Source of the DNA: an uncultured bacterium
GTDB lineage: Bacteria > Chlamydiota > Chlamydiia > Chlamydiales > SM23-39
Assembly (NCBI GenBank): GCA_963716985.1
Contig: OY970323.1
Span: 768,001-832,000, forward strand
DNA: 64,000 nucleotides
Reading direction: 5' to 3'
The notes below the pieces were generated by a model. It had not been told where the DNA came from, did not search any database, and worked only from the letters and a program-made list of their open reading frames with translations. Position 1 is the stretch's first letter; every line of letters begins with the position of its first letter. Shown here one piece after another: positions 21,986 through 42,212 of this stretch. Both the position numbers and the translations under genes were made by a program.

Positions 21986-22127
21986 GGCAAGATTTTATGA
22001 ATCATCGGCTGTGTGTTGATCATAAGCCTTTTATATTCTGTTTGATGCAAAATTATAAATGAAGCTTTTCTGCAGAAAAAAGGGATTATTCGGGAATATG
22101 AAGCGAGCAGGAGATGAATCTAAATTG

Positions 22128-22592
22128 CTAAGATCGAATCTTTTTAACAAATTCTTCTAATTTGCTCATATAGGTCCCGCTGTCAATTGTTTTGGCTTGA
22201 AAATCGACCTTGGCGACCACTTGCCCAATTAACAATTCCATTTGCGATAAAGCTTTCTCGCAACCGGGCGCTCCTTGAGTGCAAAAAATAGCGACTTTTT
22301 TGAAGTTTTTTTGATTTTCTTCAATATAGGTTCTCATGGCGGGAGTCATCGTGTTTGCCCAGACAGGAGTGCCCAAAATGACGAGATCATATTTTTGAGG
22401 ATCTTTGTGAAATTCGATCGTGGTTTTGTTTTTTCTATACGCATCTTTCCCGGAGACAAGCCAATTCCAGAAACCCTTTCGATTTTTCTTGTCGATGATT
22501 TCTTCTGTATCGGCGCGGAGGTGCTCAGCAAGAGCGTTTCCTACTGTTTTTGTATGGGATGTTCTGGAATACCAAACGACCAAATATGACAT
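22128..22592 (-). CDS. Flavodoxin-like protein
   Basis: VVWYSRTSHTK, YDLVILGTPVW, AIFCTQG; start refined to ATG 22592. Confidence 0.85.
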   Translation of the reverse strand: MSYLVVWYSRTSHTKTVGNALAEHLRADTEEIIDKKNRKGFWNWLVSGKDAYRKNKTTIEFHKDPQKYDLVILGTPVWANTMTPAMRTYIEENQKNFKKVAIFCTQGAPGCEKALSQMELLIGQVVAKVDFQAKTIDSGTYMSKLEEFVKKIRS

Positions 22593-22689
22593 AAAGCTTT
22601 CCGCAAGATTTGTTTTGCTTCTAAATAAGTTCACATGTGGGTCTCCTGTCCATGGTTACACAAACTTTCTTTAAACTTGCTCATCACTC

Positions 22690-22830
22690 TATACTGCGCA
22701 CTCTTCTAAAACGGGATGATCGTCGGTCTTACGACAAACGATCTCACCAATGATGTTATCGGTGATGATGCAGACCAAGCTTATAATCGGGCGTTTAGCA
22801 CCAATGCATTTCCGGCCTTTAAAGTCGTTG
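22690..22830 (-). ncRNA. Candidate bridge/seek RNA of the IS110 element
   Basis: Non-coding, hairpin GATCGT...ACGATC with inner GTCG/CGAC, CACCAATG repeated at 22745 and 22799; lies directly 3' of the transposase. Confidence 0.5.
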
Positions 22831-22873
22831 AAAGTTTGCTTGATTACCTGTAAGTTTTAGTTGATTTTTGTTT

Positions 22874-24283
22874 TTAGCAAGCTACTAGCCCATATCCTAG
22901 TTCTCGTGCTCGTTTCTGCAATGACAATAGCTGTCTTTCTTTATATGCCTGTTCGTATGCAGCTTGTCCAACTTCTGTAAAATTTTTGCGCTCTTTCAGC
23001 ATCGTATACAGAATTTTTGCAAGTTTATGTGCTGTCGCTGTGATCGCTTTTGGAGCACCGAGTCTTGATCGCATCCTACGAAAATAGGCGCCGAGGGCTG
23101 TTTTGGAGCGGTAAAGGGCATTGGCTGCTAAGCGTAATGCTTGTGCTGCCCTGTTGGCAGTTGGCTTGGTCTTGCCGCTCAAAATCTTGCCACCGGAAAT
23201 TTTGTTGCCGGGACAAAGCCCAAGCCAAGAAGCAAAATGTTTCGCACTCGGCCATTTGGACATATCCATGCCAATCTCTCCTAGAATTTTTATAATCCCA
23301 TTCACGTCCAGTCCGGGAATGTCAGTCAAGTTGACGTGAAGAATTCTTTCGAGAGAACCTTCTGCTTCAAAGTGATATGGACTGAGGTTGTATTTCGTCT
23401 TTTTCTGTGTTCCTCGCCCATTTTTACTTGAATGTTCTGCAGGAGTCGATCTTGGAGCCGGCATATTTTTTTTCGGTTGCGCTTCTTCCCATTTCTTCAG
23501 TACTTGCTCTATAGCCTCTTCGCACTCCAAAGCCTGTTGATGGAAAAAATCATAGGCTGCAAGAGCGTGTTTCAGCGCCAGTAGATGTTCCTCCCGATAG
23601 TTGCCATCGAGAGCTTTTGCAATTTCTTTTTCATCTTTTTTGCATCGACGATCTCGATATTTTGCTAAGACTAAGGGAGATCGTTCTCCAGAGACAATCG
23701 CTCGTATAATATTCATGCCTGTAGCGCCCGTAATGTCACTCACTACGTGATTGAGTTGGAGATTCATTTGCACGAGGGCTTTGTGCATCAATTGTACCTG
23801 CTGAGAGGCCAATTCAAACAAGCGACTTCTCTGTCTCACATATCCGCGAAGTATGACTCCTTCATCATCGGGGCGAAATGATCCTCTAAGTAATCCGTAG
23901 GCGTGTAACTGTTGGATCCATTGGCAATCTTTTACATCGGTTTTTCTACCCGGGACTGTTTTGAGGTAATATGCATTTACCAGCATGACATCTATCCCTG
24001 CCTGGGCCAAGATATCGTAAACCGGAATCCAGTATACTCCGGTAGATTCCATTGCTACGCTCCGGATCTCATTCTGTTGGATCCAGGCAAGCATGTTCTT
24101 GAGATCCTCTGTGAAGGTTAAATACTCGCGTATTTCTTGGTGCCCATCGGGAAAACCGATACAAATGAATACAGAGCTGGCTCCAATGTCTATACCGGCA
24201 ACACACGGATTTATGGGAGCCAATCTAAAATTAGATGCAGATGCAGGTTGAGTTTTTGGATATTTTTTGGTATTTTTTTTCAT
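22874..24283 (-). CDS. IS110-family DEDD transposase/recombinase
   Basis: GIDIG, MESTGVYW, GRKTDVKDCQW, WLGLCPGNKISGG, AITATAHKLA; ATG at 24283 with AGAGG RBS. Confidence 0.95.
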   Translation of the reverse strand: MKKNTKKYPKTQPASASNFRLAPINPCVAGIDIGASSVFICIGFPDGHQEIREYLTFTEDLKNMLAWIQQNEIRSVAMESTGVYWIPVYDILAQAGIDVMLVNAYYLKTVPGRKTDVKDCQWIQQLHAYGLLRGSFRPDDEGVILRGYVRQRSRLFELASQQVQLMHKALVQMNLQLNHVVSDITGATGMNIIRAIVSGERSPLVLAKYRDRRCKKDEKEIAKALDGNYREEHLLALKHALAAYDFFHQQALECEEAIEQVLKKWEEAQPKKNMPAPRSTPAEHSSKNGRGTQKKTKYNLSPYHFEAEGSLERILHVNLTDIPGLDVNGIIKILGEIGMDMSKWPSAKHFASWLGLCPGNKISGGKILSGKTKPTANRAAQALRLAANALYRSKTALGAYFRRMRSRLGAPKAITATAHKLAKILYTMLKERKNFTEVGQAAYEQAYKERQLLSLQKRARELGYGLVAC

Positions 24284-24444
24284 GACAAACCTCTTTAGTT
24301 GATGTTGTTTCAAATAATCGCGTCGATCATTCTACAGAGGTTTGTCATTTTTTGGGGGTTTTACCGTATTCTTGTGACCTCACTTATTTTTAGATGTTGC
24401 CAGAGACACAGTCCCGGTGAGGAGCTTATAAGGATAACACAACC

Positions 24445-24792
24445 CTATTCTTTTTCGATGCCAATAAATATATCGAAAACAATTTTTTGTTCATCCGCTG
24501 CTCTTTCATCGTAGATTTCGTAATCGGTATCATAACAACGCTTTCCACCCAATTCTTTCGGGGACATTTTCCAAATTTCATTCCATGCCTTTACGAGAAC
24601 GTCCGGCATTGGAGCCGGACCGGGGTGAATTTTGCGTAGCTTTGTTTAGGGATCGTTAGTTTCACAAATCCTTTGGGCAAAGCTTCATCAAATGATCCAA
24701 CCTTTCATTGTATCAAGCTCTTGTTGATAGCTGGTGTGTACACAAATTCCAACCAATTGAATTTCAGGCTTCTCTATTATGGCTTGCCGCAT
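24445..24792 (-). pseudogene. GyrI-like small-molecule-binding protein, disrupted
   Basis: MRQAIIEKPEIQLVGI... stops early; downstream frames give LPKGFVKLTIPKQSYAKF and PMPDVLVKAWNEIW...DYEIYDERA...DIFIGI, implying internal deletion and frameshift. Confidence 0.75.
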
Positions 24793-24943
24793 GGTTTGAT
24801 TCCTTTTAGTTGGACAACTCTTTGACGAGTAGACCAAGTGCAGAATTTCAGGTTTGATGAACTTCCTTGCAAGGTCTAGTTGTCGATGCGATTCTTTAAT
24901 AGAAACCAGATTCTTGGAAATATAAAAACCCTGTTCAATTTCT

Positions 24944-25651
24944 TTAAAAAAAGCGATCGTAGACATACCTGGGCATCCACTTCAAGATCCATGCGATGAG
25001 TCTCCATCTTGGGGTAATGTATGCATGAACCTTTTTCCTTCGAATCGCTTGGAAGATCATCTCTGCTGCTTGTTTGACGGGAGTTACCCAAAATAAACCT
25101 TCGCCCTTCGCCATTGCTGTATCAACAAAACCGGGTTGGATATCAGTTACGAACACCTGCTTGTTTTGCTTAAAAACCTGATGCCGAAGACCCTCCAAGT
25201 AGTTCGAAACAAAGGCTTTGGAAGCACTATAACTTCCCCCTCCTCGAAGAGCTGCAATCGAGGAAATGCCCACTAAATGGCCTTTTCCTTGTTTCAAAAA
25301 ATGCTGCATAAAAACATTGGCTATTGAGCAAAAACCCAGAACGTTCACTTCGATTGTCTGCCTTTCTTTCTCCCAATCGAGTTCTGGATTCAAAAACCCC
25401 ACGCCTGAGCTCAAAATAGCAAGATTCACGCCTCCTATTTCTTGAATGAGGGCTTTCACCTGATCCATTGCTTCTTCTGTATGAGAAATATCCACTTGTT
25501 TGATGGTTATTTGCGACGGAAATTCCTTTTGTAGGGAAAGAAGAAGCTCTTTGCGGCGGGCGATCACACCTATTTCATAGCCCTCTTTAGCGAGAATTTC
25601 TGCAAGTTCTCGTCCCATTCCCGAAGAAGCGCCAATGATGATTGCTTTCAT
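24944..25651 (-). CDS. Short-chain dehydrogenase/reductase
   Basis: IIGASSGMG, YSASK, QPGFVDT. Confidence 0.92.
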   Translation of the reverse strand: MKAIIIGASSGMGRELAEILAKEGYEIGVIARRKELLLSLQKEFPSQITIKQVDISHTEEAMDQVKALIQEIGGVNLAILSSGVGFLNPELDWEKERQTIEVNVLGFCSIANVFMQHFLKQGKGHLVGISSIAALRGGGSYSASKAFVSNYLEGLRHQVFKQNKQVFVTDIQPGFVDTAMAKGEGLFWVTPVKQAAEMIFQAIRRKKVHAYITPRWRLIAWILKWMPRYVYDRFF

Positions 25652-25839: not shown

Positions 25840-27987
25840 ATGAGAATATCGGTGCGAACATGGATCCTATCCTTTTTGCTGATTGAATCCATTCATGCAG
25901 AAAATGTGAATTTCGCGATTGTCGGCGGCGGCAGTGGCAGCGGGGTTGGCTATGCAGGCGTTTTGGGGCCTCATAGCACGACATCTCCCCAGGCAATCCT
26001 TCTTCCGCCAAATACTCCCTCGGTCCGAACGGTTGCGATCAATCATGCCGGCATTTGCCTCATCGGCTGCGGCAATGCGAGCGGAAACAGCTATGCCGCC
26101 AGGATCTTGCCCAGTAGCGTAATTCCCCAAACACTGAATCTACCTGTGAATAATCTAGCCCGGGGTGTGGCGATCAACAATTTGGGAGTTGGTTTTGTCG
26201 GCTGCGGCGATGTGAGTAATGGGTATGCTGCCCGCATCGGGCCAAATAGCATAGATCCTCAGGTAATCAATCTTCCTCCTGGCACGAATGGCATCCGGAG
26301 AGTTGCGATCAATGATGCCGGCCTTGCCATCATTGGCGGATCCAACCAATTAAGTCCAAATACCGGATATGCTGCTTATGTTTTGTCCGATAGCACAACT
26401 CCACAGCAGATCGGGGGAACGGACAACATCAACTACGTTGCGATCAATCATGCCGGCACAGCTCTCATTGGCGGTGGCGACCCTAACGGTTATGCCGCTT
26501 TTTTTGTGCCGTATAATAGCACACCTCTCCAAACGTTTACACCTTCTGCGGTTATTTATGCTGTTGCAATCAATGACGCCGGCATTGGCATCATCGGTGG
26601 CTACGACGGCTCCAATGGATACGCCGCATTTGTGGTGCCAAATAGCAGGTATCCCCAGGTGATTGCAACCAATATTCCCATTTGGGGCGCCGACATCAAC
26701 CGGGCCGGTGTAGGGATCATTGGCGGCGGTACAACGCGTGGTTATGCTGCACTTGTTGCTCCAGATGGCACTGTAACTTCGCTCGCGCTTCCCGATACCG
26801 TTACTTATCCCATTCTGGACGTTGCGATTAATGACCAAGGTGTCAGCATCATCGGCGGCGAGGACTTGAATGGCAACAGCTATTGTGCGCTTGTTGCGCC
26901 CAACGGGACTCTTACGCCATTGACTCTCCCACCTGGAAGCGGCGTCAATTTTGTTGCGATCAATGATTCATTTATTTCATCTGTCGGACCTTACTCGAGC
27001 GCGGTGAATACACAATTGGCTGCTATCTATGCTCTGGAAACGCGGCTCATGATGCAAAAATTGGAGATGCCCAACGTGTCCGGCGAGATCGGCTATCTTC
27101 TGGCCGACGCAAATGATGACATGAGCGCCATCTATCGAGAAAAGCCGCAGCGCAAAAAATCCATTTGGACCACTTCTTTTGGCGATCATGTGCATTTCAA
27201 AGAAAGGGGAAAAATCCCTTCTTTTTCAAATGAAATCGGGGGGATATTAGCGGCTCTCGATTACCATGAGCCCGATCTATTGCTCGGCGGCGCCTTGGGG
27301 TATGCGTTTAATTATATTCATTATGGAGAAGGCCAGGGCCACGGTCATCTGCAAGAAGAAACAGCTTGCTTTTATAGCGCGTTTAAAAAAAGCGTTGCCA
27401 GGATCCAGGCTGTATTATGGGGAGGGTATTATCAGGTATATAACGAACGCCATGTGCTTTCGGTGATTACCTCAACAGCGCATTTTTCCGGATGGATTTT
27501 AGCGCCTCAGGTCGAAATCGCGCTGCCGTTTGCCCTTACGCACAATCGCCTGGGTTGGATCGAGCCTTTTGTCATGATGAATTGGGTCAATGGCTGGCAG
27601 GATCATTTTACGGAAAAAGGCGCTTCTGGCTTTAACCTTGTCATGAAAAGCCTCTACTCTTCTCTTTTGCAAAGTGAACTTGGACTGCGTTTTTATGAAC
27701 ATTTTGATTACAGCTGGGGCAGATTTTCTCTCGTTGAGAAGCTGAGCTATGTCAACCAAGTGCCTTTTCATATTCGAAGAGCCAATACTTACTTTCTGAT
27801 CCCAACTTCTCCATTTCCAATCGAAACCGGCAATTCGCGGATACAAAATCTTGGCGGAATCCAGCTATGCGGCCAATTCTCGCCAAATAATTCATCTTAT
27901 CCTTCAGGAAGCCTGTCATTCCAGGGATTGCTCGGCTCTTCTTATCAATCCTATTTTGTGAATTTGGAGGTCAGGAAAAACTTTTGA
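25840..27987 (+). CDS. Autotransporter with repeat (probable beta-propeller) passenger
   Basis: Signal peptide; about 8 repeats of VAINxAG...IGG...GYAA; C-terminal beta-barrel ending in F. Confidence 0.8.
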   Translation: MRISVRTWILSFLLIESIHAENVNFAIVGGGSGSGVGYAGVLGPHSTTSPQAILLPPNTPSVRTVAINHAGICLIGCGNASGNSYAARILPSSVIPQTLNLPVNNLARGVAINNLGVGFVGCGDVSNGYAARIGPNSIDPQVINLPPGTNGIRRVAINDAGLAIIGGSNQLSPNTGYAAYVLSDSTTPQQIGGTDNINYVAINHAGTALIGGGDPNGYAAFFVPYNSTPLQTFTPSAVIYAVAINDAGIGIIGGYDGSNGYAAFVVPNSRYPQVIATNIPIWGADINRAGVGIIGGGTTRGYAALVAPDGTVTSLALPDTVTYPILDVAINDQGVSIIGGEDLNGNSYCALVAPNGTLTPLTLPPGSGVNFVAINDSFISSVGPYSSAVNTQLAAIYALETRLMMQKLEMPNVSGEIGYLLADANDDMSAIYREKPQRKKSIWTTSFGDHVHFKERGKIPSFSNEIGGILAALDYHEPDLLLGGALGYAFNYIHYGEGQGHGHLQEETACFYSAFKKSVARIQAVLWGGYYQVYNERHVLSVITSTAHFSGWILAPQVEIALPFALTHNRLGWIEPFVMMNWVNGWQDHFTEKGASGFNLVMKSLYSSLLQSELGLRFYEHFDYSWGRFSLVEKLSYVNQVPFHIRRANTYFLIPTSPFPIETGNSRIQNLGGIQLCGQFSPNNSSYPSGSLSFQGLLGSSYQSYFVNLEVRKNF

Positions 27988-31257: not shown

Positions 31258-32779
31258 CTCGACTTTGCAACTTTTAGCGGCTTAGTTCAGGCCGCCTGAA
31301 GCACTCGTCTTACTATATCATCCATCCAATCCACCATTTCTGGAGTAATATTTTCCACGGAAGGGGTGATTTTAGCCTTCCCGGAAATTAAATTATCCCT
31401 CCATATTACCATGCGCACGGCCCTCAACATATCGGAAAATGTGACGTGCTCTTTTTGGTGCCAAGCAGTTGCCTCTACCTTAAGCAAATTTACCTGTCCC
31501 AATCGATTTGCCATTAGGCATACGCAACTATATAACCCCATCAGTATGGGGGTCGATCGGGCTATCGCTCGATCCGACCATTGCCGCTGAGTCTCTACGC
31601 CAAGATGTTCACGTGTTTCTTCGAATGTGACCTCAAGTCCCCAGCGATCGATAAATAACTCTATCATACGTTCTGGCGTCATGCGTGGATCTGTGCTCAT
31701 AAGAGGTAGAGGGTCGAGTTTTCCTGTAGGATCTACCACCAAAACCCATCGGATGGGTATAGGAGTTGCTCCATCGGCTCCCCACATACATGTGTTAGAC
31801 AGCACGCGAGCTACCCGTTTCTCTCCGCCGTAACCGACTACTTCCATTTCTTTCCAGGGCAATCCCTTCAGAGATAGCATCTCTTTAAAATTTTTCAATT
31901 TGACGCCTTTCTGTGCAGTACGTCCCCTTTGGCCGGGACGCTTTTCGGCCGGGAAATCGAACAGGGCTGCATTCATTTTCAGTCGCGAAACAAGAGTCAC
32001 CCCAGAACAGATACAGTTCAGAGCCAACTGTCCCGCAGCATATCCTCCATCGCCAACAAGAATTAGTGATCGCGCCTTACCTACCCATCGACGCACCTGT
32101 AAGACCATCTGACTCGCCCATTTTAATGAGGTTTTGTGCCGACGTTTCTTCGCTTCATCACATTTTTTAGAAGGCTCCAGTGCACTCAAAAAAGGCAATG
32201 CAAGTGCTCTCGACATAAACGGCAATTTCACAGAGAGCGCCATAACCTGCCACTTCAAACCCATGGCTTTGACCACTCGAGACTGTGACGATCGAACCGC
32301 ATCTCGATAATAGCCCTTTGCTTTTATCTTCTTGCCACGCCTGCGCTCCAATGTCTCGTCAATGAGCAGAACCAAAGGATGCTGATCGGAGACAAAGATA
32401 AGCAACATAAAGAATAGGATTTTCGCTGCCTTGAGTGACGACCATTCCGCCCGGTTTAAAAGGTGATGGTACTTTGAAAAACCCGACTGATGCTCAAGAC
32501 CCATTGCGCGCAGAGCCGCACACACGGTTCTCTTGCCAGTGCATAAAAGCGTGCCAAGTAATAAGGTCAGGGCTTTTTTCCAAGAAGGATTTGAAAAAAG
32601 TACTGAAAAAGGGGTGAGTACTGCTAAAATGTTTGACGATAGAGAGTCCATGAGAGCCTGCCATTTTGTTTTACTGAACCAAATAGTATGCGCGAAGCGG
32701 CACTCTCTATCAACTTTTTATTTTACAGATTGAAGCAAATGACTTTGGGCTATCAGATCAAAAAATGTACAAAGTCGAG
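31258..32779 (-). mobile_element. IS701-like insertion sequence, 1522 bp
   Basis: Terminal inverted repeats CTCGACTTTG / CAAAGTCGAG flanking a DDE transposase; no target duplication visible. Confidence 0.85.
31287..32651 (-). CDS. DDE transposase (IS701-like)
   Basis: LIDETLERR, VGDGGYA, RWGLEVTFEETREHLG. Confidence 0.9.
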   Translation of the reverse strand: MDSLSSNILAVLTPFSVLFSNPSWKKALTLLLGTLLCTGKRTVCAALRAMGLEHQSGFSKYHHLLNRAEWSSLKAAKILFFMLLIFVSDQHPLVLLIDETLERRRGKKIKAKGYYRDAVRSSQSRVVKAMGLKWQVMALSVKLPFMSRALALPFLSALEPSKKCDEAKKRRHKTSLKWASQMVLQVRRWVGKARSLILVGDGGYAAGQLALNCICSGVTLVSRLKMNAALFDFPAEKRPGQRGRTAQKGVKLKNFKEMLSLKGLPWKEMEVVGYGGEKRVARVLSNTCMWGADGATPIPIRWVLVVDPTGKLDPLPLMSTDPRMTPERMIELFIDRWGLEVTFEETREHLGVETQRQWSDRAIARSTPILMGLYSCVCLMANRLGQVNLLKVEATAWHQKEHVTFSDMLRAVRMVIWRDNLISGKAKITPSVENITPEMVDWMDDIVRRVLQAA

Positions 32780-32786
32780 ATAGTTC

Positions 32787-33089
32787 ATGAGTATGCAAAA
32801 TGCGGCTCGCGTAGTCCTCATTCTTTTAACAATTTTAAGTGCAGGGCTTTTGTTATCAACCAGTGAGGAGGCGTGTTCTCAGATGAAGGGATTGAATCAA
32901 CTTCTAACATGTGAGCTCGAAAGGCTGCAAAACCAGTATGGCTTTCCGGGAGCAACAGTCGCATATGTGTTGCTCGACGGGACCGTGGGCGAGGTTGCAA
33001 GTGGATTTGCAGATATCGAAACTCAAGAACCTATGACCACCAAGTCTCGGATGCTGGCAGCCAGCATTGGAAAAACCTTCGTTGCTGCA
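32787..33089 (+). pseudogene. Serine hydrolase / beta-lactamase-like protein, 5' fragment
   Basis: Signal peptide, YGFPGATVA, SxxK motif ASIGKTFVAA, then the frame runs into antisense portal sequence. Confidence 0.8.
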
Positions 33090-34090
33090 TTGAGCCCCGC
33101 CGCACTTCGCCCGAAGAGCAAGGAGACAGGCACCCCAGACACTGCAGATAAAGCCAGCATGAAACGATCCAAAAGTTCAGGAATGCCGACGATGTTGGTT
33201 GAAGATTTCTCATATTTTTCTGCAGCATCTAAAATCATCGTATTGGTTGCACTTTTGGTCATATTGAGCAGGTCGAGCCGCTTCATCACCTGGTTGTCAG
33301 CGCATTGCGAAGCGATTAATTCAGCTAGGTTTGGAATCGACAGGGTATAATTGACAAAATCCTGCATAATGAGGCCTGCATTGGCAAAGGCGGTTGAGTA
33401 ATTCCTCAACTCATCATAAATCGATTGGATCAGTGGATCTCCCCATCCATTATTGAAATTTTGCTGCCGGGGAGGCAGGATCGACCAATCGATCCGCAGA
33501 ATGCGGGAATGGTGCACATAGAACAAAGCTCCTGTTCGTGTATCATTGACGGTATACACATTTGGAAAACCGTAATTGGGACTATTGAGATCCTTTTCAA
33601 AGGTGCCGTCCCTGCTAAACGATTGATATCGATCAAAAACATGGAGCCATTTCACATCGCGAATGTTTTTCTCATCGACCGGTTCTTCAAGGGGCAACCC
33701 ATCTGCAATCCCCATGACGCATAGAGCGCCTCCATACAAACGGGCCCATCTGAGGAGCGTGATTAAATTGAAATTGGCCTTAATGGTCTCCAGCGCGGCA
33801 TTAGTTTTTTGGTCCGAATCTCCCTCGATTTCCCATCCTTGCCGCACCATTTCGGCTGGGATGATGTCCATAATCCGTCGCGTCACTCCATCGGATCGAT
33901 AGAGCTGATCCAGTTCTGCCTGCTCGAATATCTTTTCCAAGCGGAACTGCGCATGCACATTTTTATCTCTGCCGCGCAACCCAAGTCCCGTGAGGACGTT
34001 GATCCAGCCATCCGACTTAACCGCACCATCGTGATGTGCGATTCGGCTTTGTTCTTCCGAAGATTTCTTTTTGAAATTGTAAGTACCCAT
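33086..34090 (-). pseudogene. Phage portal protein, DUF1073 family, C-terminally truncated
   Basis: DGWINVLTGLG, WARLYGGA, VHHSRIL, SGVPVSLLFGRSAAGLNA, then homology stops (ORF track 33023..34090). Confidence 0.8.
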
Positions 34091-34454
34091 TTTTTCCCGG
34101 ATTAAGAAGGCGCTGCATTGGGAAATTGGGTCTCAACGGCGTATGAAAAGCCGCTTTAGAATAGATGGGTCATTGCAGATCTGAAGATCTGAATAAAATT
34201 CACCTTATCATATGGAAATAAAAAAGAATAGCTTATGTTTTAAATGCGAACCCGCTTTTACAGACCATAAGGGGAACTTGATTTTTCGCGCGGCGTTTAA
34301 CGACAAGAAAGGCCGCGCGATAAGATTGATTTTTGGTTTGTTGCGCGGGCTATATGTTTAATTATTTGATGCTCAATTGGTTGGGAATGGCGTGAACAGC
34401 AGCTTACTATAATTTGTCTTGGCGATTTGCCGCTATTTTCTGTGCTCAAATATC

Positions 34455-36115
34455 CATCCCCATGCCGGAAGAATGCATTTTAGGGATTAAAAAAATCGCC
34501 TAAAAACAGATCCCCAAAATGGAAATCTCTTGTTTGGGGATGGATTTTATTGCCGCTTTCTGCTTATCATATAGGCATGATTAATCGGGTGTAAAAAATG
34601 ACAAATCCTCCATTCATTGGCCGTGAGCCAGAAATTGCTAGACTGAAGGGGCTCTTAAGTAAAAAAAGCGCAAGCCTCATTGTCGTTCGAGGACGACGAA
34701 GGATTGGCAAAAGCAGATTGCTTGCAGAGTTTGGGAAAGAAATGAAAAGCTTTTTCTTCTCAGGAATGCCTCCCATAAAAAAAACCAATGCTCGGCTGCA
34801 AAGAGAAGAATTTGCAGGTCAAATGGAAAGAATGGGGTTGCCTGGGGCTAAATCTGACGACTGGAGCAACCTTTTCTGGTCTTTATCAAAACATACTCAA
34901 AAGGGTCGTATCCTTGTCGTCTTTGATGAGATATCATGGATGGGGGGAAAGGATCCTGCATTTCTAGGAAAATTAAAAACTGCTTGGGATATGTATTTTA
35001 GCAAAAACCCCCACCTGATTATGGCTCTGTGCGGATCTATCTCTTCTTGGATTGAAGAAAATATCCTCAGCAGCACTGGATTTGTTGGAAGAGTCACTAT
35101 AGATCTTGTCTTAGAAGAGCTTCCCTTGAATGTTTGTAATGCTTTTTGGCGACCTAAAGAAAAACTCATTTCTGCTTATGAGAAATTTAAACTTTTGTCA
35201 ATCACTGGCGGAGTGCCACGCTATCTTGAAGAAATTAATCCTGAGTTGCCCGCAGAAAAAAATATTCAAAATCTTTGCTTTACTCGTGGAGGATTGCTCG
35301 TGCGAGAATTTGATGAGATTTTTTCTGACCTGTTTTCACGCCGTAGTACAAGTTATAAAGAAATAGTCACGTGTCTTGCAGAAGGACCTAGAGAGCTTTT
35401 GGAAATCTGTAAAGAACTTAAACAAACTCGTGGGGGACTGCGTAGTAAATATCTTGATGATTTGGTCAAAGCTGGATTTATTCAGAGAGATTTTTCTTGG
35501 CATCTACAGGATGAGAAGGAGACTAAAATAAGCCGCTTTCGCTTGAGTGATAATTATCTTCGGTTTTATTTGAAGTATATCTCTCGCAATCGTTCTAAAA
35601 TTCAAAAAGGAGATTTTACTCCCTCTGCATTGACAAATTTTCCTGGTTGGGAGGGCATCATGGGATTGCAGTTTGAAAATCTTGTCGTCCATAACCGAAA
35701 AACTGTTTTGAAGTTAATAGGAATATCTCCTGAAGAAGTAGTTATGGATGGTCCATTTTTTCAAAGGTCAACAAAAAAGCTTCCTGGATGTCAAATCGAC
35801 TATATGATTCAAACACGTTTTTCTACTTTATACATCTGCGAAATCAAATTTTCTAAGGATTCTATAGGAAAAAAAGTCATCGAAGAAATGAAAGAAAAAA
35901 TAAGTCGATTAAAATTACCTAAGCGCTTTTCTATTAGACCCATTCTTATCCATGTAAATGGAGTAGAGAGCGCTATGTTAGATGAAGGATATTTTGATAA
36001 GGTGATTGATTTCGGGCAGTTTTTAGAGTGAAATCCGCCTTATATTCTCATCCCGAAACGAGCAAAAGCTATTTGGGGGATTAAAAATTTAGCTCAAAAA
36101 TACATCCCCAGAATG
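34455..36115. repeat. Degenerate direct repeats of ATCCCC/GGGAT boxes flanking the ATPase gene
   Basis: 34478-34521 versus 36072-36115 match at 34 of 44 positions by manual alignment. Confidence 0.6.
34598..36031 (+). CDS. Archaeal-type AAA ATPase with wHTH and C-terminal PD-(D/E)XK-like domain
   Basis: FIGREPE, GRRRIGKS, VFDEISW, TGGVPRYL, QIDYMI...ICEIKF. Confidence 0.88.
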   Translation: MTNPPFIGREPEIARLKGLLSKKSASLIVVRGRRRIGKSRLLAEFGKEMKSFFFSGMPPIKKTNARLQREEFAGQMERMGLPGAKSDDWSNLFWSLSKHTQKGRILVVFDEISWMGGKDPAFLGKLKTAWDMYFSKNPHLIMALCGSISSWIEENILSSTGFVGRVTIDLVLEELPLNVCNAFWRPKEKLISAYEKFKLLSITGGVPRYLEEINPELPAEKNIQNLCFTRGGLLVREFDEIFSDLFSRRSTSYKEIVTCLAEGPRELLEICKELKQTRGGLRSKYLDDLVKAGFIQRDFSWHLQDEKETKISRFRLSDNYLRFYLKYISRNRSKIQKGDFTPSALTNFPGWEGIMGLQFENLVVHNRKTVLKLIGISPEEVVMDGPFFQRSTKKLPGCQIDYMIQTRFSTLYICEIKFSKDSIGKKVIEEMKEKISRLKLPKRFSIRPILIHVNGVESAMLDEGYFDKVIDFGQFLE

Positions 36116-36411
36116 ATATTTGTAGATTTACATATGTTTTTTATGACGAAAAAATATATCCGTAAATCGACTTTTTTCGATTTGGGGATGTCTTTTGTGC
36201 TCGAAAAATCCATCAGCAAACAGACATTTTGCTATTTGCGGATGGATTGCACCAATTTTTATAGACAAACTAGAGCGGAGCAGAAGCGAGAAAACAGCTT
36301 TCTGCCGCGCTTGATAACGAGATTTGTGTCTGTCGCGCGAAGTTGAGAAACATAAAACCCGCGCGATACGCTAGCCTAACAAAATAGGGAAACAGCTGCT
36401 TCCCAATTGAG

Positions 36412-37389
36412 CTACGAGATTAGATTGACCTTTTTGCTGGCATTCTCTGCGCGAGAGGATTTGTCATAAGCATGCACCATTTCAGAAGTAGAGTGACCGG
36501 TCACTCGCATGATGTCGCTGTCTTGGAATCCTTGTTGTTTCAGATAGGTGACAGCAGAAGCCCGAAGGACATGTGGGGAGATTTTGAAGGAGATACCGGC
36601 GGCTTTCCCTGCCTTCGCAAAGGTGATAGCCACTTGATTGATCATGACTGGTTTTCCGGATCTCGTCACGAATACGTGCCCCTGTCGCTCTCCAATGTAA
36701 GCTCTCAAAGCTTTCATAATGCTATCGGGGTAGGTGATAACGGTTTCCTTGTGGAGCTTCCTTGTTTTGGATTGCGTGAATGTAATCTCGCATTGCTCCC
36801 AGTCGATCTGGTGCGTTTGTAAGAAAAGAACCTCATTTACTCGCTTGCCGCCCTGCAGGATAATTTTGCCAATGAGACAATCTCTCAAGTTGATCTTTTC
36901 GAGCTCCTTGAAAAAGAGAAGCCATTGCGCTTGAGTCATGGCTTTGGTTTTGACTTTCTCATAGAGATTGAAAAACGTTTTTGTGCCTCCTTCTTTGCTA
37001 GGAATGGCTTTTCTGATCACTCCTTGAAGGCGTCTGCTGAGAAATCCTGTGAATGAAATATAGCAAGCAGCTCTGGCCTGTTTCGTGGTCTCTGCCCATT
37101 TTGAAAATAGCTTGATCTGATCGATGATTCCTTCGTGGTTGATCACGGCAAATGCTTGTAAATTGAGCAGGGGATTGAGCCATCCAAACTCGATCAGCTT
37201 TCTGATTCCGGATCGGTAGTTGATTTGCGTTTTTTGTCCAAGTGTAGAAAGCCAATGATCAATCGCTTGTTCGACGGAGGTCTCTGCCAGCTTTTCCCAA
37301 ATCAAGTTCGTTTTGGCGGAGGCAACCTGTTCGTACGTTTGTAAGCCATGAAGCATTGGCAACCCATGAACGGTAGGAACTAAACTCAT
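36412..37389 (-). CDS. Tyrosine recombinase, chlamydial plasmid integrase pGP8-like
   Basis: TKQARAACYISFTGFL, LQGGKRVNEV, QSKT, PHVLRASAVT, VTGH...YDK. Confidence 0.85.
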   Translation of the reverse strand: MSLVPTVHGLPMLHGLQTYEQVASAKTNLIWEKLAETSVEQAIDHWLSTLGQKTQINYRSGIRKLIEFGWLNPLLNLQAFAVINHEGIIDQIKLFSKWAETTKQARAACYISFTGFLSRRLQGVIRKAIPSKEGGTKTFFNLYEKVKTKAMTQAQWLLFFKELEKINLRDCLIGKIILQGGKRVNEVLFLQTHQIDWEQCEITFTQSKTRKLHKETVITYPDSIMKALRAYIGERQGHVFVTRSGKPVMINQVAITFAKAGKAAGISFKISPHVLRASAVTYLKQQGFQDSDIMRVTGHSTSEMVHAYDKSSRAENASKKVNLIS

Positions 37390-37489
37390 GTTTTTCGCTC
37401 CGGCCCAAAATAATGGGCTTTTTTAGTTTTTGGCATCTGCTGATCCGATTTTAGCGTTTGAGGGCTCGGGCCCTTCATACAGCCTTCGA

Positions 37490-37517
37490 ATTGTTTATAA
37501 CTCGATTTATAAACAAT
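37490..37517. other. dif/res-like tyrosine recombinase site (11-6-11)
   Basis: ATTGTTTATAA-CTCGAT-TTATAAACAAT, perfect arms, 100 bp upstream of the recombinase start. Confidence 0.7.
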
Positions 37518-37636
37518 AAAATGTAGCTCCAAATTTCTTTCCTGGCAACACGAAGTTTTGGCGATCTACCTTATTTAGCGGCAAGTCATCTTAGCTCCTT
37601 TCGTGTGAAAGGCAACATAATGCAACGTCAATAAGT

Positions 37637-37948
37637 ATGTGTGTTGACAATCCGGACCATAATCATTTATACGTTATATTGTCAAAGCAACAAAGAGGGA
37701 ATGTGAATAGGCAAGATCAAGCGGTAATGCAGCAAAGCGACCAAGAGATAAATGGACAAATTACCTCAAATCGAACCAAGAAAAAGATCAAAGCAACCAT
37801 TTATTTGACGGAAGATGCAGAACAAGCGTTTACCGAGCTTTATATTCATCGATTGCGCAAAGACAGAAAGATCGATCGTTCAATGATCGCCTGCGATGCG
37901 ATTCAGGCGCTCTTCGAAAAAGAATGTATGGGAGTAAAGCAGAACTAA
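37637..37948 (+). CDS. Small putative ribbon-helix-helix DNA-binding protein (plasmid partition/copy-control-like)
   Basis: KIKATIYLTE beta-strand followed by two helices (RSMIACDAIQAL); start uncertain. Confidence 0.55.
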   Translation: MCVDNPDHNHLYVILSKQQRGNVNRQDQAVMQQSDQEINGQITSNRTKKKIKATIYLTEDAEQAFTELYIHRLRKDRKIDRSMIACDAIQALFEKECMGVKQN

Positions 37949-37987
37949 ACAGTTGTTTTTCGCTTAGCTATCGATCGCGATTACAAT

Positions 37988-38030
37988 GTAACACAGACAC
38001 CCATCTCGATCAAACGGGTGTCTATGTTAC
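37988..38030. terminator. Stem-loop downstream of the RHH gene
   Basis: GTAACACAGACACCC / GGGTGTCTATGTTAC, one mismatch. Confidence 0.5.
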
Positions 38031-38078
38031 GTCTGTGCACGACAGAAAATAAATGAAAATCATGCTATGAGGTGAGAT

Positions 38079-38567
38079 ATGAAAAAAAGCCGTCTTTTTA
38101 AGATTAGAGTGGCCATTCCTACTGATGTTCCTGTAATTTTGCAGATGATAAAAGAACTAGCAGATTTTGAAAAAATTGAAGCGACGGTCACTGAAAAAAA
38201 TCTCCGTGAGGTTCTTTTTCATGATCCAAAAGGACCAGAAGCTTTGGTGGCTGAAGAAGATTCTGTTCCCATAGGATATCTCATTTTTTATCAAACTTTC
38301 TCCGGAAGTTTGGGGAAAAGAGGAATTTATATCGAAGATGTTTATATCAAAGAGCCTTACCGAAAAAAAGGTTATGGAACGCTTTTTTTTAAAGAAGTTG
38401 CACAAATAGCCAAAGCAAGAAAATGCGGAGGGTTTTTCTGGTCGGTGTTCAACTGGAATGAAAATGCCATTAGATTTTATCAAAAAATAGGCGGCATTCC
38501 TATGAACGATCAGACCGTTTATCGCCTAACGGAGAAAGCTTTGGATATTTTTCTTGAGAAAAAATGA
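38079..38567 (+). CDS. GNAT acetyltransferase (diamine acetyltransferase-like)
   Basis: IKELADFEK, IYIEDVYI...YRKKGYG, WNENAIRFY. Confidence 0.9.
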   Translation: MKKSRLFKIRVAIPTDVPVILQMIKELADFEKIEATVTEKNLREVLFHDPKGPEALVAEEDSVPIGYLIFYQTFSGSLGKRGIYIEDVYIKEPYRKKGYGTLFFKEVAQIAKARKCGGFFWSVFNWNENAIRFYQKIGGIPMNDQTVYRLTEKALDIFLEKK

Positions 38568-38644
38568 GCTTTTTAGAGATCAAATTTTTTCGTGTACAGA
38601 GATGTGTTACATTAAAAACACATTAAATAGCTCATCTTAAGTAT

Positions 38645-39994
38645 TTAAAATGTCGTTAAAGCCGATAGATCGTAAGCGGCATTCGTGAGCATCAAAAACG
38701 CTCCGCTGAAAGCATCCACGATATCGTCGTGGCTGCCTTCGGGGAAATTTTCCAGCTCCCTTAAGAAATCGTCATTCCAAGGAGCCTGAAGGATTTTAAT
38801 ATTGCCAGCTTCTGCTTGGGAAGAAACAGGGAGCGCTCGGGTCACTTTATCTTGGGTCGCTTTGACGGTTTTCACATTGTAGCCTTGGAGCATTCGGAGC
38901 AGATAATCGGCTTCACTGACTCCTGCCTGGCCTGGATCTTGTTCAATGCCGATTCTGACGGCGATTCCATCTTGGCTCGCTGTATTTTTGATCGCTGTTT
39001 GTACGCCAAGAGGGCTTTGTTGAATTCGCACCATGTCAGTGACATACAAGATGTTATTTCTGTCTTTTTCGAGTCGAAGCCCAACGGTATAATCCGGATC
39101 ATTGTTCTCGATTTTTTTGGTGGCCGCACGGTCCCAATAACGGACTGCTTTTGTCCCGCTCTTGGGAATGGCTTTGACGATCTCGAAAAAGCATCGTTGA
39201 AAAAACATGCCGGCCGTAGGACGTACATTCCAGTTGCCCATCAGCAACTGTTCTCTTTCAAAACGGGGAAGGGCTTTCAAATTGGCGAGATAGCCAGGGT
39301 CTTTTTCCAGGAGGATTTTATTATCATGTACCGTAGACGCGACGAAGGAGACACTTTTGGGAAGACATGTCGGATTTTTTTCTATGAGCTCTTCACGGCT
39401 CGATGCCCAGATTGTTTCGTCGTTTTGGATGATGAACCAACGTATTTTACCGCTTCTGGAATGAATGGGATACCCCGATTGGTCATCGATCCACCAAGAG
39501 ATGAATTGCCTGACCCAGGATTCTGAATCAGGATTTGTCGTCGCTCGAATGTAGGGCTTCACTCCACAAGTTGATCGGTTTCTCGACAGCATATAAACGA
39601 ATTGCGACCAAGAAAAATGACTCAGCTCATCAAATCCAATAAAAGAGATTTGGGCGCCTTGCCAATCGAATCGCGTTTTATCATGTTCGAGATGGGCAAA
39701 TTTGACTTTTCCTTTACCCCGGAAATCCCATTCGAGCGTTGATTCTTTGGGGATGCCGTTGGCGTGAGGAAAGATTTCGCAGCTTGTGTCCCATAGTCCG
39801 CCCGGATTGCGCACCTGGGTACTATTTCGTCGAAAAATGACGGCGAAAAATCCGGTGACATTTCGATGGCGTAAACATTCCAAGAGGAGCGCATATGTTT
39901 TACCGCCTCCCGCAGCTCCTCCATAAATCACGATATCAGCAGGGGAGTCTAAAAACTGGTGCTGAGGTCCTTGTTGTGGCATGATTTTAGACAT
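38645..39994 (-). CDS. terL: Phage terminase large subunit
   Basis: YGGAAGGGKT, GFDELSHF, ATTNP, RYWDRAAT, DYTVG, HDDIVDA. Confidence 0.92.
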   Translation of the reverse strand: MSKIMPQQGPQHQFLDSPADIVIYGGAAGGGKTYALLLECLRHRNVTGFFAVIFRRNSTQVRNPGGLWDTSCEIFPHANGIPKESTLEWDFRGKGKVKFAHLEHDKTRFDWQGAQISFIGFDELSHFSWSQFVYMLSRNRSTCGVKPYIRATTNPDSESWVRQFISWWIDDQSGYPIHSRSGKIRWFIIQNDETIWASSREELIEKNPTCLPKSVSFVASTVHDNKILLEKDPGYLANLKALPRFEREQLLMGNWNVRPTAGMFFQRCFFEIVKAIPKSGTKAVRYWDRAATKKIENNDPDYTVGLRLEKDRNNILYVTDMVRIQQSPLGVQTAIKNTASQDGIAVRIGIEQDPGQAGVSEADYLLRMLQGYNVKTVKATQDKVTRALPVSSQAEAGNIKILQAPWNDDFLRELENFPEGSHDDIVDAFSGAFLMLTNAAYDLSALTTF

Positions 39995-40475
39995 TTGGAT
40001 CGTCCGTTTTTGCTTCTATGCAATCGCCTCTTCCATTATCGGGAATATAAATCTGCACAGGATCTTCTCCTTTGACGATCGTTTCCGTAACAATGGTTTC
40101 TCTTTGGCCGAGCCATATCTTTCCAAGCCAGATTGCCATCGTTGCACTTCGTTCGGCTTGTTGAAATTGATACCTTCGGAGGGAGAGTTTATGAAGCCCA
40201 TTGCACCTTTTTCTTAACTCCGCAAAACCCATACCAAAAGCCTCCCTCAACCTTCGATCCAAAGTGTCTACACTGATTCGAAAAGCGCCTGCGATTTCTT
40301 CGGCTGTTGCTTGCAATTCGGTCCAATAGAGCACTTGATCGAGATTGATTTCTTTTTCTGGAATTGTCCCTTTCCATTCAGAAGGAGGGGCTTTAGGATC
40401 TGCGGGAGGCTTAACTGTCTTTTTCGGCCGGCCATTCGGTCTTCCCGTTGGTTTTCTAGGCATAGACTTCACCAT
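39987..40475 (-). CDS. Putative terminase small subunit
   Basis: GRP N-terminus, HTH (AEEIAGAFRISVDTLDRR), MAIWLGKIWLGQ; overlaps the terL start. Confidence 0.75.
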   Translation of the reverse strand: MVKSMPRKPTGRPNGRPKKTVKPPADPKAPPSEWKGTIPEKEINLDQVLYWTELQATAEEIAGAFRISVDTLDRRLREAFGMGFAELRKRCNGLHKLSLRRYQFQQAERSATMAIWLGKIWLGQRETIVTETIVKGEDPVQIYIPDNGRGDCIEAKTDDPNV

Positions 40476-41745
40476 TCCGCTTGATTTCGCAAACCTCGTT
40501 TCTTTGCATCTTGAATTTTCTGTAGCGGGTGACGATCACATCACAATATCTTGGATCCAATTCGCATCCAAAACAACGGCGCCCGAGCTGCTCCGCCGCG
40601 ATCAGCGTGCTGCCAGAGCCCAGAAAGAAGTCAAAAACAAGATCGTCCCTTTTCGAGCTGTTATTGATCAGATAGCCAATCAAAGGGATCGGTTTCATGG
40701 TTGGATGCTCGGCATTTCTCTGGGGGCGATCAAATTTCAAAAGAGTCGTCTGTTTGCGATTGCTATACCAACGGTGTTTCTCCCCCTCTTTCCACCCATA
40801 AAGCACGGGGTCATGATCCGTATATTCCTTCCCTCCAAACAGAATCGGCTCATGCTGCCATTGATAGTCTTGCCTTCCGAGAACAAACGAGTTCTTGAGC
40901 CAGATCAAGCATTGCGTCATCTTCAAATTCGCTTCCCGGAAAAACCGTCGGAATCGTTCTCCTTCCGAGTCTGCGTGAAAGACATAAATTCCAGCGCCCT
41001 CCTTCATAAAGATGTAAGCATTCGTGTAGAAATCCCTTAAAAGCGATTCAAATTCCTCATGAGAAAGATCATCGTTTTTGATGGTGAGTGCATCCCTTGT
41101 TTTTCCCTTGTAAGCCACATTATAGGGAGGATCGGTAATGACAAGATCGATCAGATGGGATTTCAGCACTTTTTCTATATCTCCGTGAAGGGTCGCAGAT
41201 CCGCAAATAAGTCGATGCCGGCCGAGTTCATAAATGTCGCCCGGCTTCGTCTTGGGTTCCTCTGGCAGCTCTTCTTCGTAGCCATCGTCTACAGCTTCGA
41301 TTTTTTCAGGATCCTTGAATTGCAACTCATCTTCTGTAAATCCCCAATTGAATAGATCAGTGACTTCCCATTCATTGGCCAGCCGTTCCCAATCCCACTC
41401 GCCTGAGTTTTTGTTGCTGCGAATGAGATATTCTTCCGCCTCCTTTTCGGTTAGCTGGCGATTGGGTGTCCTCACCTCGATTTCTTCATTGCCACGACCC
41501 AATGCCTTCATTGCTCGCACCCGCATATGACCTGCCAAAATAGTGTTATCCGAATTGATGACAATGGTCTCAACGTAGTTAAAGCTTCGAATCGATTGCT
41601 TGAGCTTTTCCATTTGCTCTGCTGTGATTTTTCGCGGATTTTTCTGATGTTCTTTTAAGTCATTGACTTTTCTAAGTTTGGTGTGCCAAATCAGGTCGCT
41701 CCCTTGTTTTGAGGAGCCTTTGTGATTGGTTGTTTTATTGGTCAT
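40456..41745 (-). CDS. ParB-N-terminal phage DNA methyltransferase (N6/N4)
   Basis: NPRKI...ILAGHMR, TDPPYNV, HPTMKP, DFFLGSGSTL. Confidence 0.92.
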   Translation of the reverse strand: MTNKTTNHKGSSKQGSDLIWHTKLRKVNDLKEHQKNPRKITAEQMEKLKQSIRSFNYVETIVINSDNTILAGHMRVRAMKALGRGNEEIEVRTPNRQLTEKEAEEYLIRSNKNSGEWDWERLANEWEVTDLFNWGFTEDELQFKDPEKIEAVDDGYEEELPEEPKTKPGDIYELGRHRLICGSATLHGDIEKVLKSHLIDLVITDPPYNVAYKGKTRDALTIKNDDLSHEEFESLLRDFYTNAYIFMKEGAGIYVFHADSEGERFRRFFREANLKMTQCLIWLKNSFVLGRQDYQWQHEPILFGGKEYTDHDPVLYGWKEGEKHRWYSNRKQTTLLKFDRPQRNAEHPTMKPIPLIGYLINNSSKRDDLVFDFFLGSGSTLIAAEQLGRRCFGCELDPRYCDVIVTRYRKFKMQRNEVCEIKRNGEVYA

Positions 41746-41870
41746 TCAATTTCTCTTTTTTGAAGTTTTTCAGTCGAAATTTTCCTTGCAATAGCAAGGA
41801 TCGCTTTCAAATCAAAAAGGGGTGATTGAGAAACTGGGTAAGTGGGTAGAAGCCTGCCGGCTTAGGAAAG

Positions 41871-42212
41871 TCACGCTTTAGTGACGATTTCGATCGTAAT
41901 GGGATAAAGTTCTTCGACCATTTTTCTTTTCGTCTGGCTTAGGGCAGTATCTTTGCCTTTCGTGTCGACGAAGCTAATATCTCCATTCGAATAAAACACC
42001 TGAAAATCACAGACATAACGGGTCCTGCCGGGCAGATCGAAAGGGATCTGTCGCAAGAAAAACAACACCTGTCCATTATTTTGTAATAGGCGCAGCCTGT
42101 CGTAATATCTGGCCTCGAGTTTGGAGGGGAATTTTTTCCCGTCGCGTTCGCAGCGAACCGCGCCAAATTTATGTTTTGACCTGGGCCGCTGTTTGAAAAT
42201 CTGGAATGCCAT
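41871..42212 (-). CDS. DUF1064-family phage PD-(D/E)XK nuclease-like protein
   Basis: KFGA...DGKKFPSKLEARYY, YVCDF, VDTKG. Confidence 0.8.
   Translation of the reverse strand: MAFQIFKQRPRSKHKFGAVRCERDGKKFPSKLEARYYDRLRLLQNNGQVLFFLRQIPFDLPGRTRYVCDFQVFYSNGDISFVDTKGKDTALSQTKRKMVEELYPITIEIVTKA

Follow-up and report, generated by a model that had tools for sequence, protein, structure and literature searches.

The window, a stretch of 64,000 nucleotides, carries on one strand genes for a DUF1064 nuclease, a ParB_N-fused methylase, TerS, TerL and a portal, with a recombinase, its candidate site, a small RHH-like protein, a GNAT and an ATPase between the last two, all at the positions originally predicted (Table 1). 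The portal gene (PF06381, E 9e-62 over 33023–34090, minus strand) aligns to residues 1–336 of the 485 amino acid portal of plasmid pCS1 (87% identity) and its reading frame extends 20 codons into foreign sequence past the breakpoint; it is indeed broken, as had been proposed. The 103 amino acid open reading frame taken for an RHH protein is present, but a profile search gave no Pfam RHH match; its look and its 44% identity over 45 amino acids to the protein adjoining ParA in pCS1 suggest an RHH-like, DNA-binding protein. TerS also lacked a Pfam match in the profile search. PHROG 309 matched 11 of 15 aligned members of its family (best E 1e-10), but the copy in the window at no better than E 0.005. 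The GNAT occupies a slot filled by an AbiE pair in many relatives and has a paralog at genome position 846416. Copies of the ATPase (71–75%) were found in four of nine elements searched, and paralogs elsewhere in the window's genome; the two imperfect hairpin repeats flanking it were rejected as marks of a cassette array on examining the repeats. The right boundary first placed at 42212 was too short, as the element runs approximately 37 kb further.

Table 1. Features of the locus (window positions unless marked as genome positions)
Feature	Position	Strand	Remarks
Serine hydrolase (PF00144) gene, 5' piece	32787–33085	+	truncated at left breakpoint
Portal, DUF1073/PF06381	33086–34090	-	first 336 of 485 codons; profile match
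Archaeal-type ATPase, PF01637	34598–36031	+	cargo often adjoining portal
pGP8-like tyrosine recombinase, PF00589	36412–37389	-	profile match and catalytic residues
11-6-11 palindrome, candidate recombination site	37490–37517	none	sequence conservation
Small RHH-like protein, 103 aa ORF	37637–37948	+	divergent from recombinase
GNAT acetyltransferase	38079–38567	+	variable cargo
TerL, PF03237 and PF17289	38645–39994	-	ATPase and nuclease motifs present
TerS	39987–40475	-	PHROG 309 (terminase small subunit)
ParB_N-fused N6/N4 DNA methylase, PF01555	40456–41745	-	profile match
DUF1064 nuclease (PHROG 190, Holliday junction resolvase)	41871–42212	-	profile match
Large cargo region of element	42213–64000 and on to genome 847300	none	MerR, GNATs, hydrolases, ABC-F, kinase, MFS
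Two further family core genes	genome 847303–847970		directly after cargo region

A chlamydial host was confirmed by Hc1 (E 6e-17; this profile also matches in one of 14 controls), three full-length TLC nucleotide transporters and a match, with 0–1 mismatch, to Chlamydiales 16S primer sequences. A profile search of the window's genome did not find the Chlamydia-specific Pfam families OMP6 and DUF1137. This genome is a single contig, 99.5% complete, and contains no capsid, head or tail gene anywhere, for which reason a GTA or scattered structural genes were rejected.

Among the closest known relatives is the circular plasmid pCS1 of Criblamydia sequanensis (NZ_LK031773, 89.5 kb), which typifies the family, with 86% identity in TerL, 78% in the recombinase and the same order. 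pCS1 and the "phage group" plasmids of Protochlamydia massiliensis (92 kb) and of Rubidus massiliensis (pRm2, 80.9 kb) possess the same genes, order, strand and site, with 77–92% protein identity; the copy in the window differs from all three in being chromosomal, in its cargo, and in lacking head, tail and replicon. The order portal-[cargo]-recombinase-site-RHH-[cargo]-terL-terS-methylase-DUF1064-[cargo]-early genes-replicon-tail-head is common to pCS1 and nine assembled relatives, and its terS-terL-RHH-site-recombinase-portal block is present in the window, collinear and at high identity. Complete versions with capsid and tail genes, as sought by the synteny comparison, thus exist, and the integrase-terminase adjacency is not unique to this genome: 17 of 19 close loci have the recombinase after terL, and the remaining two stop short of it. 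That phage and plasmid genes occur together is native to the family and not an accident of the window's genome; "interleaved" was a misleading term, since recombinase, site and RHH-like gene belong to the element as constant components.

Exact k-mer end overlaps revealed closed circles in five of eight whole contigs, and 2–3 plasmid copies per chromosome have been reported (PMC4791399, PMC5583166). The family occurs in at least five host families, some loci standing under non-chlamydial titles and MAG binning being able to misplace plasmids. No relaxase was found: pCS1 is non-mobilizable, and two relaxase families gave no match in five genomes. In the TerL tree the 24 family rows form one clade (support 98/98). 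The recombinase tree, a quick tree with long outgroup branches from which one locus (L046) was left out as too short, recovers three TerL subgroups, though with some rows paired in another way, so that the congruence of the two is partial.

We conclude that the locus is almost certainly a broken chromosomal relic of this pCS1-like family of circular plasmids. It spans approximately 47 kb, from 33086 to past the end of the window, including 37 kb of cargo. What the genome retains of the element runs between portal codon 336 and the first early genes; the missing head, tail and replicon modules mark it as a relic and not a whole family member, in keeping with the remnant originally proposed. The choice then offered between phage, phage-plasmid and GTA-like element falls to the phage-plasmid, the GTA-like option having found no support in this genome. 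From DUF1064 to the first early gene the spacing is 37.1 kb in the relic against 37.1 (G001) and 36.5 kb (G005) in two relatives. Family homologs exist for six of the 36 cargo ORFs, versus a median of zero in control windows of equal size; as one control window held five, later host insertions could account for some of the 37 kb. The GC skew of the relic is -0.017 versus +0.07 on both flanks.

The 3' piece of the hydrolase gene lies inverted at genome positions 849754–850670, adjoining an IS21 end. The last five bases of the left piece recur as the first five of the right one, and another copy of the same IS21 is flanked by a 5-base target duplication. It would appear that an IS21-linked inversion cut the portal and fused it to the hydrolase gene. 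Misassembly of a co-resident plasmid with the chromosome might be invoked in so IS-rich a neighbourhood, its junctions being known from the assembly alone, but the five bases common to both gene halves, the IS21 end lying exactly at one of them, the duplication at the other IS21 copy and the absence of the element's missing half from the assembly leave it scarcely credible. Integration via the palindrome was rejected: the whole genome has a single such site, internal to the element, and no two hybrid att sites flank the relic. In another member, G010, the break that opens the complete element falls within parA and not at the palindrome.

The reported intactness of terS, terL and the methylase stands as far as open frames and catalytic motifs go, but need not mean function in this host. 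These features, and the dN/dS of 0.04–0.06 for the block versus its nearest relative, are what would be expected had the host domesticated it for a GTA-like or other function. Against this, pairwise dN/dS mostly reflects the time before integration, capsid and tail genes are lacking, other chromosomal scraps of the family are decayed, and, among the genomes searched, the block is missing from the only one of the same genus and from 61 of the 68 of the same family; we consider domestication highly improbable. The relic is dead and of modest interest by itself.

The recombinase contains all of the catalytic residues (R, H-x-x-R, H, Y) and resembles C. muridarum pGP8 over its full length (49% identity); it is 38% identical to pGP7 and 29% to the host Xer. 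By sequence it is likely a resolvase or cyclase; Pgp7 and Pgp8 are believed to resolve plasmid multimers (PMC11577247). The palindrome is perfect in the window, and across the family its arms are invariant and its spacer variable, with a conserved stretch of approximately 50 bases adjoining. Each of the 23 sequences examined has one copy, 2.2–6.2 kb from the terS start; among the 11 sequences with both genes the site lies 0.4–2.9 kb from terL versus 3.1–23.7 kb from the portal. The exact pattern was located in 16 of 401 genomes of the phylum, 12 of them with a close TerL, and the reversed control in none. Perfect palindromes with spacers of 6–8 are not in themselves rare (51 in the window's genome), and what distinguishes this one is its conservation in the family. 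The conservation centres on the palindrome, which makes the ORF annotated across it in pCS1 (RS00070) look spurious. In Waddlia pWc the same palindrome lies just upstream of the gene for a recombinase 56% identical to the window's; in the C. muridarum plasmid, the interval between pGP7 and pGP8 shows no more than a looser core of such a palindrome. Very probably, the recombinase resolves at the palindrome.

The morphogenesis genes of pCS1 specify portal, protease, cement, capsid, neck, terminator, sheath, tube, chaperone, tape measure, hub, spike, wedge and fibres; with the packaging genes this is a full, myovirus-like set, found together with ParA, primase-helicase and a conserved 548 amino acid gene in nine of ten contig stretches. 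Capsid protein dN is 0.02 at dS 0.5–0.9, indicating purifying selection, and the best matches of 27 genes across nine elements contain no stop codon. From these data the family plasmids are likely working tailed phages, and particle formation is probable. Alternatively, and in keeping with a published reading of "putative prophage" genes on plasmids (PMC7846284), they would be ordinary plasmids with a prophage block, decaying or serving as a DNA-free contractile weapon, the terminase beside the pGP8-like gene being a frozen accident. This alternative would accommodate the split head genes of some members (the minor head of G002, several in G010) and the core ORFs scanned, among which there was no holin, endolysin or confident repressor, only one borderline Cro/C1 HTH (E 2e-4). 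We think it very unlikely, since gene order is fixed in all members and the genes for terminase, portal, protease and capsid, none of which a tailocin needs, rank with the most conserved (dN/dS about 0.03). Of 24 sequencing runs listed, 14 had at least half of the words, none of these being surely RNA; the runs with structural genes are DNA or probably DNA, and none was marked as a virome.

Genome size introduces a tension, since kin with the same capsid type pack 40–60 kb, half the element. Besides pCS1, elements measure 91.3, 96.4, 93.2, 73.5 and 70.1 kb (range 70–96 kb), and published family plasmids 80.9 and 92.1 kb (PMC4791399, PMC5583166). Particles might thus be made with heads of the ancestral capacity of about 45–50 kb, carrying part of the plasmid or host DNA in a transducing or GTA-like manner, while the transfer of entire plasmids would take multiple infection or some other route. 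Such a reading draws on the genome sizes of cultured phages with this capsid family (of 60 sampled, 56 measure 44–62 kb and only two exceed 70 kb), on 38–44 kb sister phages with 68–77% capsid identity and similar protein lengths, on the short pCS1 tape measure (368 amino acids) and on the variation in element size. It is opposed by the ceiling near 96 kb despite unrelated cargo, by a size trade-off between the two cargo slots (rho -0.71, n 8, p 0.047; p 0.094 without the window, the members being related to each other), by near-identical whole elements in different host families, by a 79 kb phage with a full-length 309 amino acid capsid homolog, and by the fixed closeness of site and terS, which makes sense for whole-genome circularisation. 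We judge it rather unlikely; whether the whole genome is packed in one head seems evenly balanced.

Overall, the locus is probably an immobile relic of chlamydial plasmids with a complete myovirus-like head and tail, likely temperate phage-plasmids, in which the pGP8-like recombinase and the palindrome by the terminase form a predicted P1-style module for circularisation and dimer resolution. The ancestor would have been a compact 41–44 kb myovirus, terL adjoining portal, that gained the pGP8 module, ParA and a primase-helicase replicon. If headful packaging starts near terS, with pac assumed in or near that gene, the terminal redundancy would include the site 2–6 kb away, and cargo would accordingly pile up on the far side of that site; the recombinase may then close injected DNA and resolve plasmid dimers. 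One copy presumably entered the window's chromosome by a route other than the palindrome and shed its replicon, head and tail genes; the inversion at the portal may have been caused by an IS21 end. More tentatively, and on balance slightly doubtful as a whole, chlamydial tailed temperate phages would live as 70–96 kb plasmids: a 42 kb myovirus captured the chlamydial pGP8 recombinase, set it with its site next to the packaging start in the manner of P1, doubled genome and capsid, and shuttles metal- and drug-detoxification cargo between chlamydial families inside amoebae; the palindrome would be the long-missing target of pGP8-type enzymes, and cultured strains should release particles.

Earlier reports mention 7% phage proteins for these plasmids (PMC4208316), 20 phage proteins (PMC4791399) and a terminase (PMC7846284); the terms "capsid", "portal" and "sheath" are absent from five supplements of the latter. 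The main text of a phage-plasmid survey (PMC7969092) lacks "chlamydi", and pCS1 may be in its supplement. Literature searches turned up no account of a complete phage-plasmid, or of any tailed phage, in chlamydiae. To our knowledge the described chlamydial phages are only small single-stranded ones, which is why tailed phages likely working in this group matter. If real, they would provide a vehicle for DNA exchange across chlamydial families without conjugation genes, and would explain the published transfer of pCS1-type plasmids and the terminase scraps on chlamydial chromosomes. For pGP8-type recombinases, which are only presumed to act as resolvases, the palindrome is a concrete candidate substrate. 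With three carriers in culture the proposal is directly testable, and the capsid-size answer is informative either way, pointing to capsid expansion between close relatives or to a plasmid that outgrew its head.

The predicted link to the chlamydial plasmid lineage holds via pGP8, but the rest of the backbone is not the Chlamydiaceae core, whose other pGP genes are absent or remote in this family. ParA (PF13614, E 3e-53) is 29% identical to pGP5, and its adjoining RHH-like protein is presumably its partition partner; the clear primase-helicase is 29% identical to pGP1 over its C-terminal part only, and blastp gave no match to pGP2, pGP4 or pGP6. A pGP1/2/5/6 backbone was dropped, only remote ParA and DnaB likeness being seen. 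The 548 amino acid replicon protein, the candidate replication initiator, had no family match and, in its predicted structure (pLDDT 46), no fold match; its atlas matches were HTH-type clusters only. Chlamydiamicrovirus (Microviridae) comprises small ssDNA viruses without terminase, portal or tail, unrelated to the family. In PMC5010888 these too are phages of Chlamydiae.

The closest phage kin are uncultured 38–44 kb IMG/VR myoviruses (L051–L056, L059; TerL 66–75% identical to the window's), which share collinear head-tail genes and DUF1064 with the family, but are half its size and have terL abutting the portal (seven loci); integrase, primase-helicase and ParA were found in none of five whole records. 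A parallel is the phage-plasmid P1 (Punavirus). P1 did not appear in the TerL or capsid matches listed, and it differs in its terminase, portal, capsid and replicon families and in having a 13-8-13 site versus the family's 11-6-11. Both are circular low-copy plasmids of approximately 90–95 kb with myovirus genes, ParA and toxin-antitoxin pairs, and both have the order terS-terL-small regulators-site-tyrosine recombinase within about 4 kb; in P1, pac lies in pacA at 90806 and lox at 94800, followed by cre, annotated "cyclization recombinase". The likeness is one of architecture only: the family "works like" P1, with no homology implied.

The nine ORFs of the original prediction are all there, with the families stated for them. 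The portal gene is broken as described: its match to the portal of pCS1, the Criblamydia sequanensis plasmid, ends at codon 336 of 485, and the break abuts an oppositely oriented 5' fragment of a serine hydrolase gene. The chlamydial identity proposed for the host also held. Its genome is a single contig of 2.07 Mb, estimated as 99.5% complete. Genes for Hc1 and for three TLC transporters of full length are present, and Chlamydiales 16S primers match; two Chlamydia-specific Pfam families (OMP6 and DUF1137) were not found in it. The host is taken as an environmental chlamydia.

Among plasmids, pCS1 (circular, 89.5 kb) is the best match to TerL (86%) as well as to the recombinase (78%), and its DUF1064, methylase, terS, terL, RHH-like, recombinase and portal genes follow the order of the window. 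It further carries head genes (head morphogenesis protein, protease, cement and major capsid), neck and tail genes (neck, terminator, sheath, tube, chaperone, tape measure, hub, spike, wedge and fibre-like) and, beside these phage genes, a replicon side with ParA and a DnaG-DnaB fusion. A genome search yielded 23 loci, 19 of them with TerL at 86-88%; terL is followed by the recombinase in 17 of these 19, the other two stopping too early to tell. Ten contigs or contig stretches of the family were examined; in nine, a complete head-tail module and the replicon follow the pCS1 order, the tenth being a chromosomal scrap. Of the eight whole contigs, five overlap exactly at their ends, by 55 or 77 bases, which marks them as closed circles (70-96 kb).

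Across a draw of 401 Chlamydiota genomes, a close full-length TerL was present in 13 and the capsid gene of the family in 11. Ten of the latter are close and span five host families; the eleventh genome holds an unrelated 39 kb phage. The structural genes are intact and constrained: capsid dN is 0.02 at dS 0.5-0.9 among elements, and for 27 genes the best matches across nine elements contain no stop codon; the exceptions are an interrupted minor head gene in genome G002 and several split genes in the integrated copy of genome G010. DNA close to pCS1-type structural genes was detected in groundwater, wastewater and drinking-water metagenomes (at least half of the words matched in 14 of the 24 runs listed).

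The window copy is a dead chromosomal relic. Beyond the window end, homology to the family returns in two early genes which in relatives come after the big cargo slot. The intervening gap measures 37.1 kb (37.1 and 36.5 kb in family members G001 and G005), and 6 of its 36 ORFs have family homologs, among them MerR at 81%; the median for 55 equal control windows was 0, one window being as high as 5. GC skew is -0.017 in the relic and about +0.07 outside. The cargo is rich in GNATs and hydrolases, and includes an ABC-F protein passing the NCBIfam cut-off for ribosomal-protection-like proteins, together with AadS-like and beta-lactamase-fold proteins falling under theirs. The rest of the split hydrolase gene is inverted, directly at an IS21 end, both pieces share the same five bases, and another copy of that IS has a 5-base duplication. 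The likeliest reading of the wreckage is an inversion promoted by IS21 in which the portal gene lost its 3' part. Whole-genome searches of the assembly found no head, tail or replicon genes. Against the nearest relative, terL, terS and the methylase gene have a pairwise dN/dS of 0.04-0.06, most of which goes back to the time preceding integration. Six or more of the other genomes drawn contain decayed scraps of this block.

Features and side observations, by position (genome, whole contig OY970323.1)
Feature	Sequence	Position	Remark
Two tandem near-identical 200-aa ORFs	window	9444-10046; 10490-11092	
IS110 and IS701-like transposases	window	22874-24313; 31287-32651	
715-aa autotransporter-domain protein (PF03797)	window	25840-27987	
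Imperfect hairpin repeats	window	34449-34548; 36049-36243	either side of ATPase gene; weaker copies near ATPase paralogs and in relatives
Palindrome	window	37490-37517	invariant arms, variable 6-base spacer
Flat GC skew	genome	790-880 kb	broader than relic
Two early genes	genome	847089-847970	
Inverted hydrolase piece	genome	849754-850670	
IS graveyard	genome	850874-857100	past right breakpoint
Second recombinase 3' fragment	genome	1836180-1836350	96.5% identical; between IS701-like transposase and ATPase gene
Whole ~94 kb element	G010:C2 (L081-L085)	~65700-159700	inside 350 kb contig; split genes from decay or long-read error
Repeated triplet of ~245-aa paralogs	L026; L027 (G001:C6)	19281-20000; 19281-25479	ends tail module; differs between members; possible receptor-binding set
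More distant myovirus contig, 39 kb	L100 (G298:C2)		capsid 52%, TerL 27%; same-order genome; putative host link
Exact palindrome, no close TerL or capsid	G054:C2; G065:C1; G335:C35	371; 2324000; 28889	may mark other pGP8-type modules
Palindrome, C. muridarum plasmid	L093	1013-1034	same ATAA-N6-TTAT core, between converging pGP7 and pGP8; candidate resolution site

As to the origin of the family, terL adjoins portal in the 7 loci of uncultured IMG/VR sister phages with both genes, and capsid identity is 68-77%. The five whole sister records are of 38-44 kb (90-100% complete), and none of the five shows an integrase, the primase-helicase or ParA. In the TerL tree, the 24 family rows form one clade (98/98) with the sister phages alongside. 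From this we infer that a compact myovirus acquired plasmid modules. The recombinase (49% identity to pGP8, 38% to pGP7 and 56% to a Waddlia protein) is, alone of the backbone, clearly of chlamydial-plasmid stock; sequence comparison led us to reject a pGP core for the remainder.

Size is a point against the phage-plasmid reading. Among 60 cultured phages sampled across the capsid family, 56 have genomes of 44-62 kb and 2 have genomes above 70 kb, so that to package 90 kb the head would have to be larger than in its kin. A size limit near 100 kb is favoured by element sizes, which stop at 96 kb, and by a trade-off between the two cargo slots (n 8, rho -0.71, p 0.047). Leaving out the window raises p to 0.094, and the members are related. 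No lysis genes were seen among the core ORFs scanned, no sure replication initiator in profile and fold searches of the family, and no relaxases of the two families tested in five genomes; pCS1 is non-mobilizable.

Phage origin has been reported for 7% of pCS1 proteins (PMC4208316). Other papers describe circular pRm2, with 20 phage proteins and >70% identity to pCS1 (PMC4791399), a circular 92 kb plasmid in two copies (PMC5583166), a chromosomal island with a terminase (PMC5010888), 'phage group' plasmids with terminase, putative prophage transfer and pgp7/8 of phage origin (PMC7846284), and phage-plasmid sizes peaking near 50 and 100 kb (PMC7969092). In the portions available, the supplements of PMC7846284 name no capsid, portal or sheath, and the main text of PMC7969092 no chlamydiae. 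Nothing in the literature searched, which covers few subscription journals, describes a complete phage-plasmid of chlamydiae. The family is an under-recognised Chlamydiae group with an anatomy like that of a tailed phage-plasmid.

The palindrome beside the recombinase gene occurs once per sequence in 23 of 23 sequences, which were picked for holding the recombinase and include close kin. In most of them the recombinase starts no more than 210 bases away, and the distance to the start of terS is 2.2-6.2 kb. The palindrome is also found upstream of the Waddlia pWc recombinase. The exact pattern is present in 16 of the 401 genomes, 12 of them with a close TerL (reversed control, 0), and this distribution rules out a chromosomal dif site. 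Integration via the palindrome was likewise rejected, because the relic has one site, which is internal, and the whole G010 element was opened inside parA. Cargo grows between site and portal (3-24 kb) and hardly at all between site and terminase (0.4-2.9 kb).

The terminase would start headful packaging at a predicted pac near terS, and the recombinase would act at the palindrome, held beside the packaging genes. Pgp7/8 are believed to resolve multimers, with Pgp8 required for plasmid maintenance (PMC11577247); in the Punavirus phage-plasmid P1, Cre closes the linear DNA that comes out of the head (PMC2841073). Given these roles and the P1 architecture, the recombinase is probably a resolvase/cyclase, not an integrase. 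In P1 the matching architecture is pac inside pacA, then lox 4.0 kb further, and then cre.
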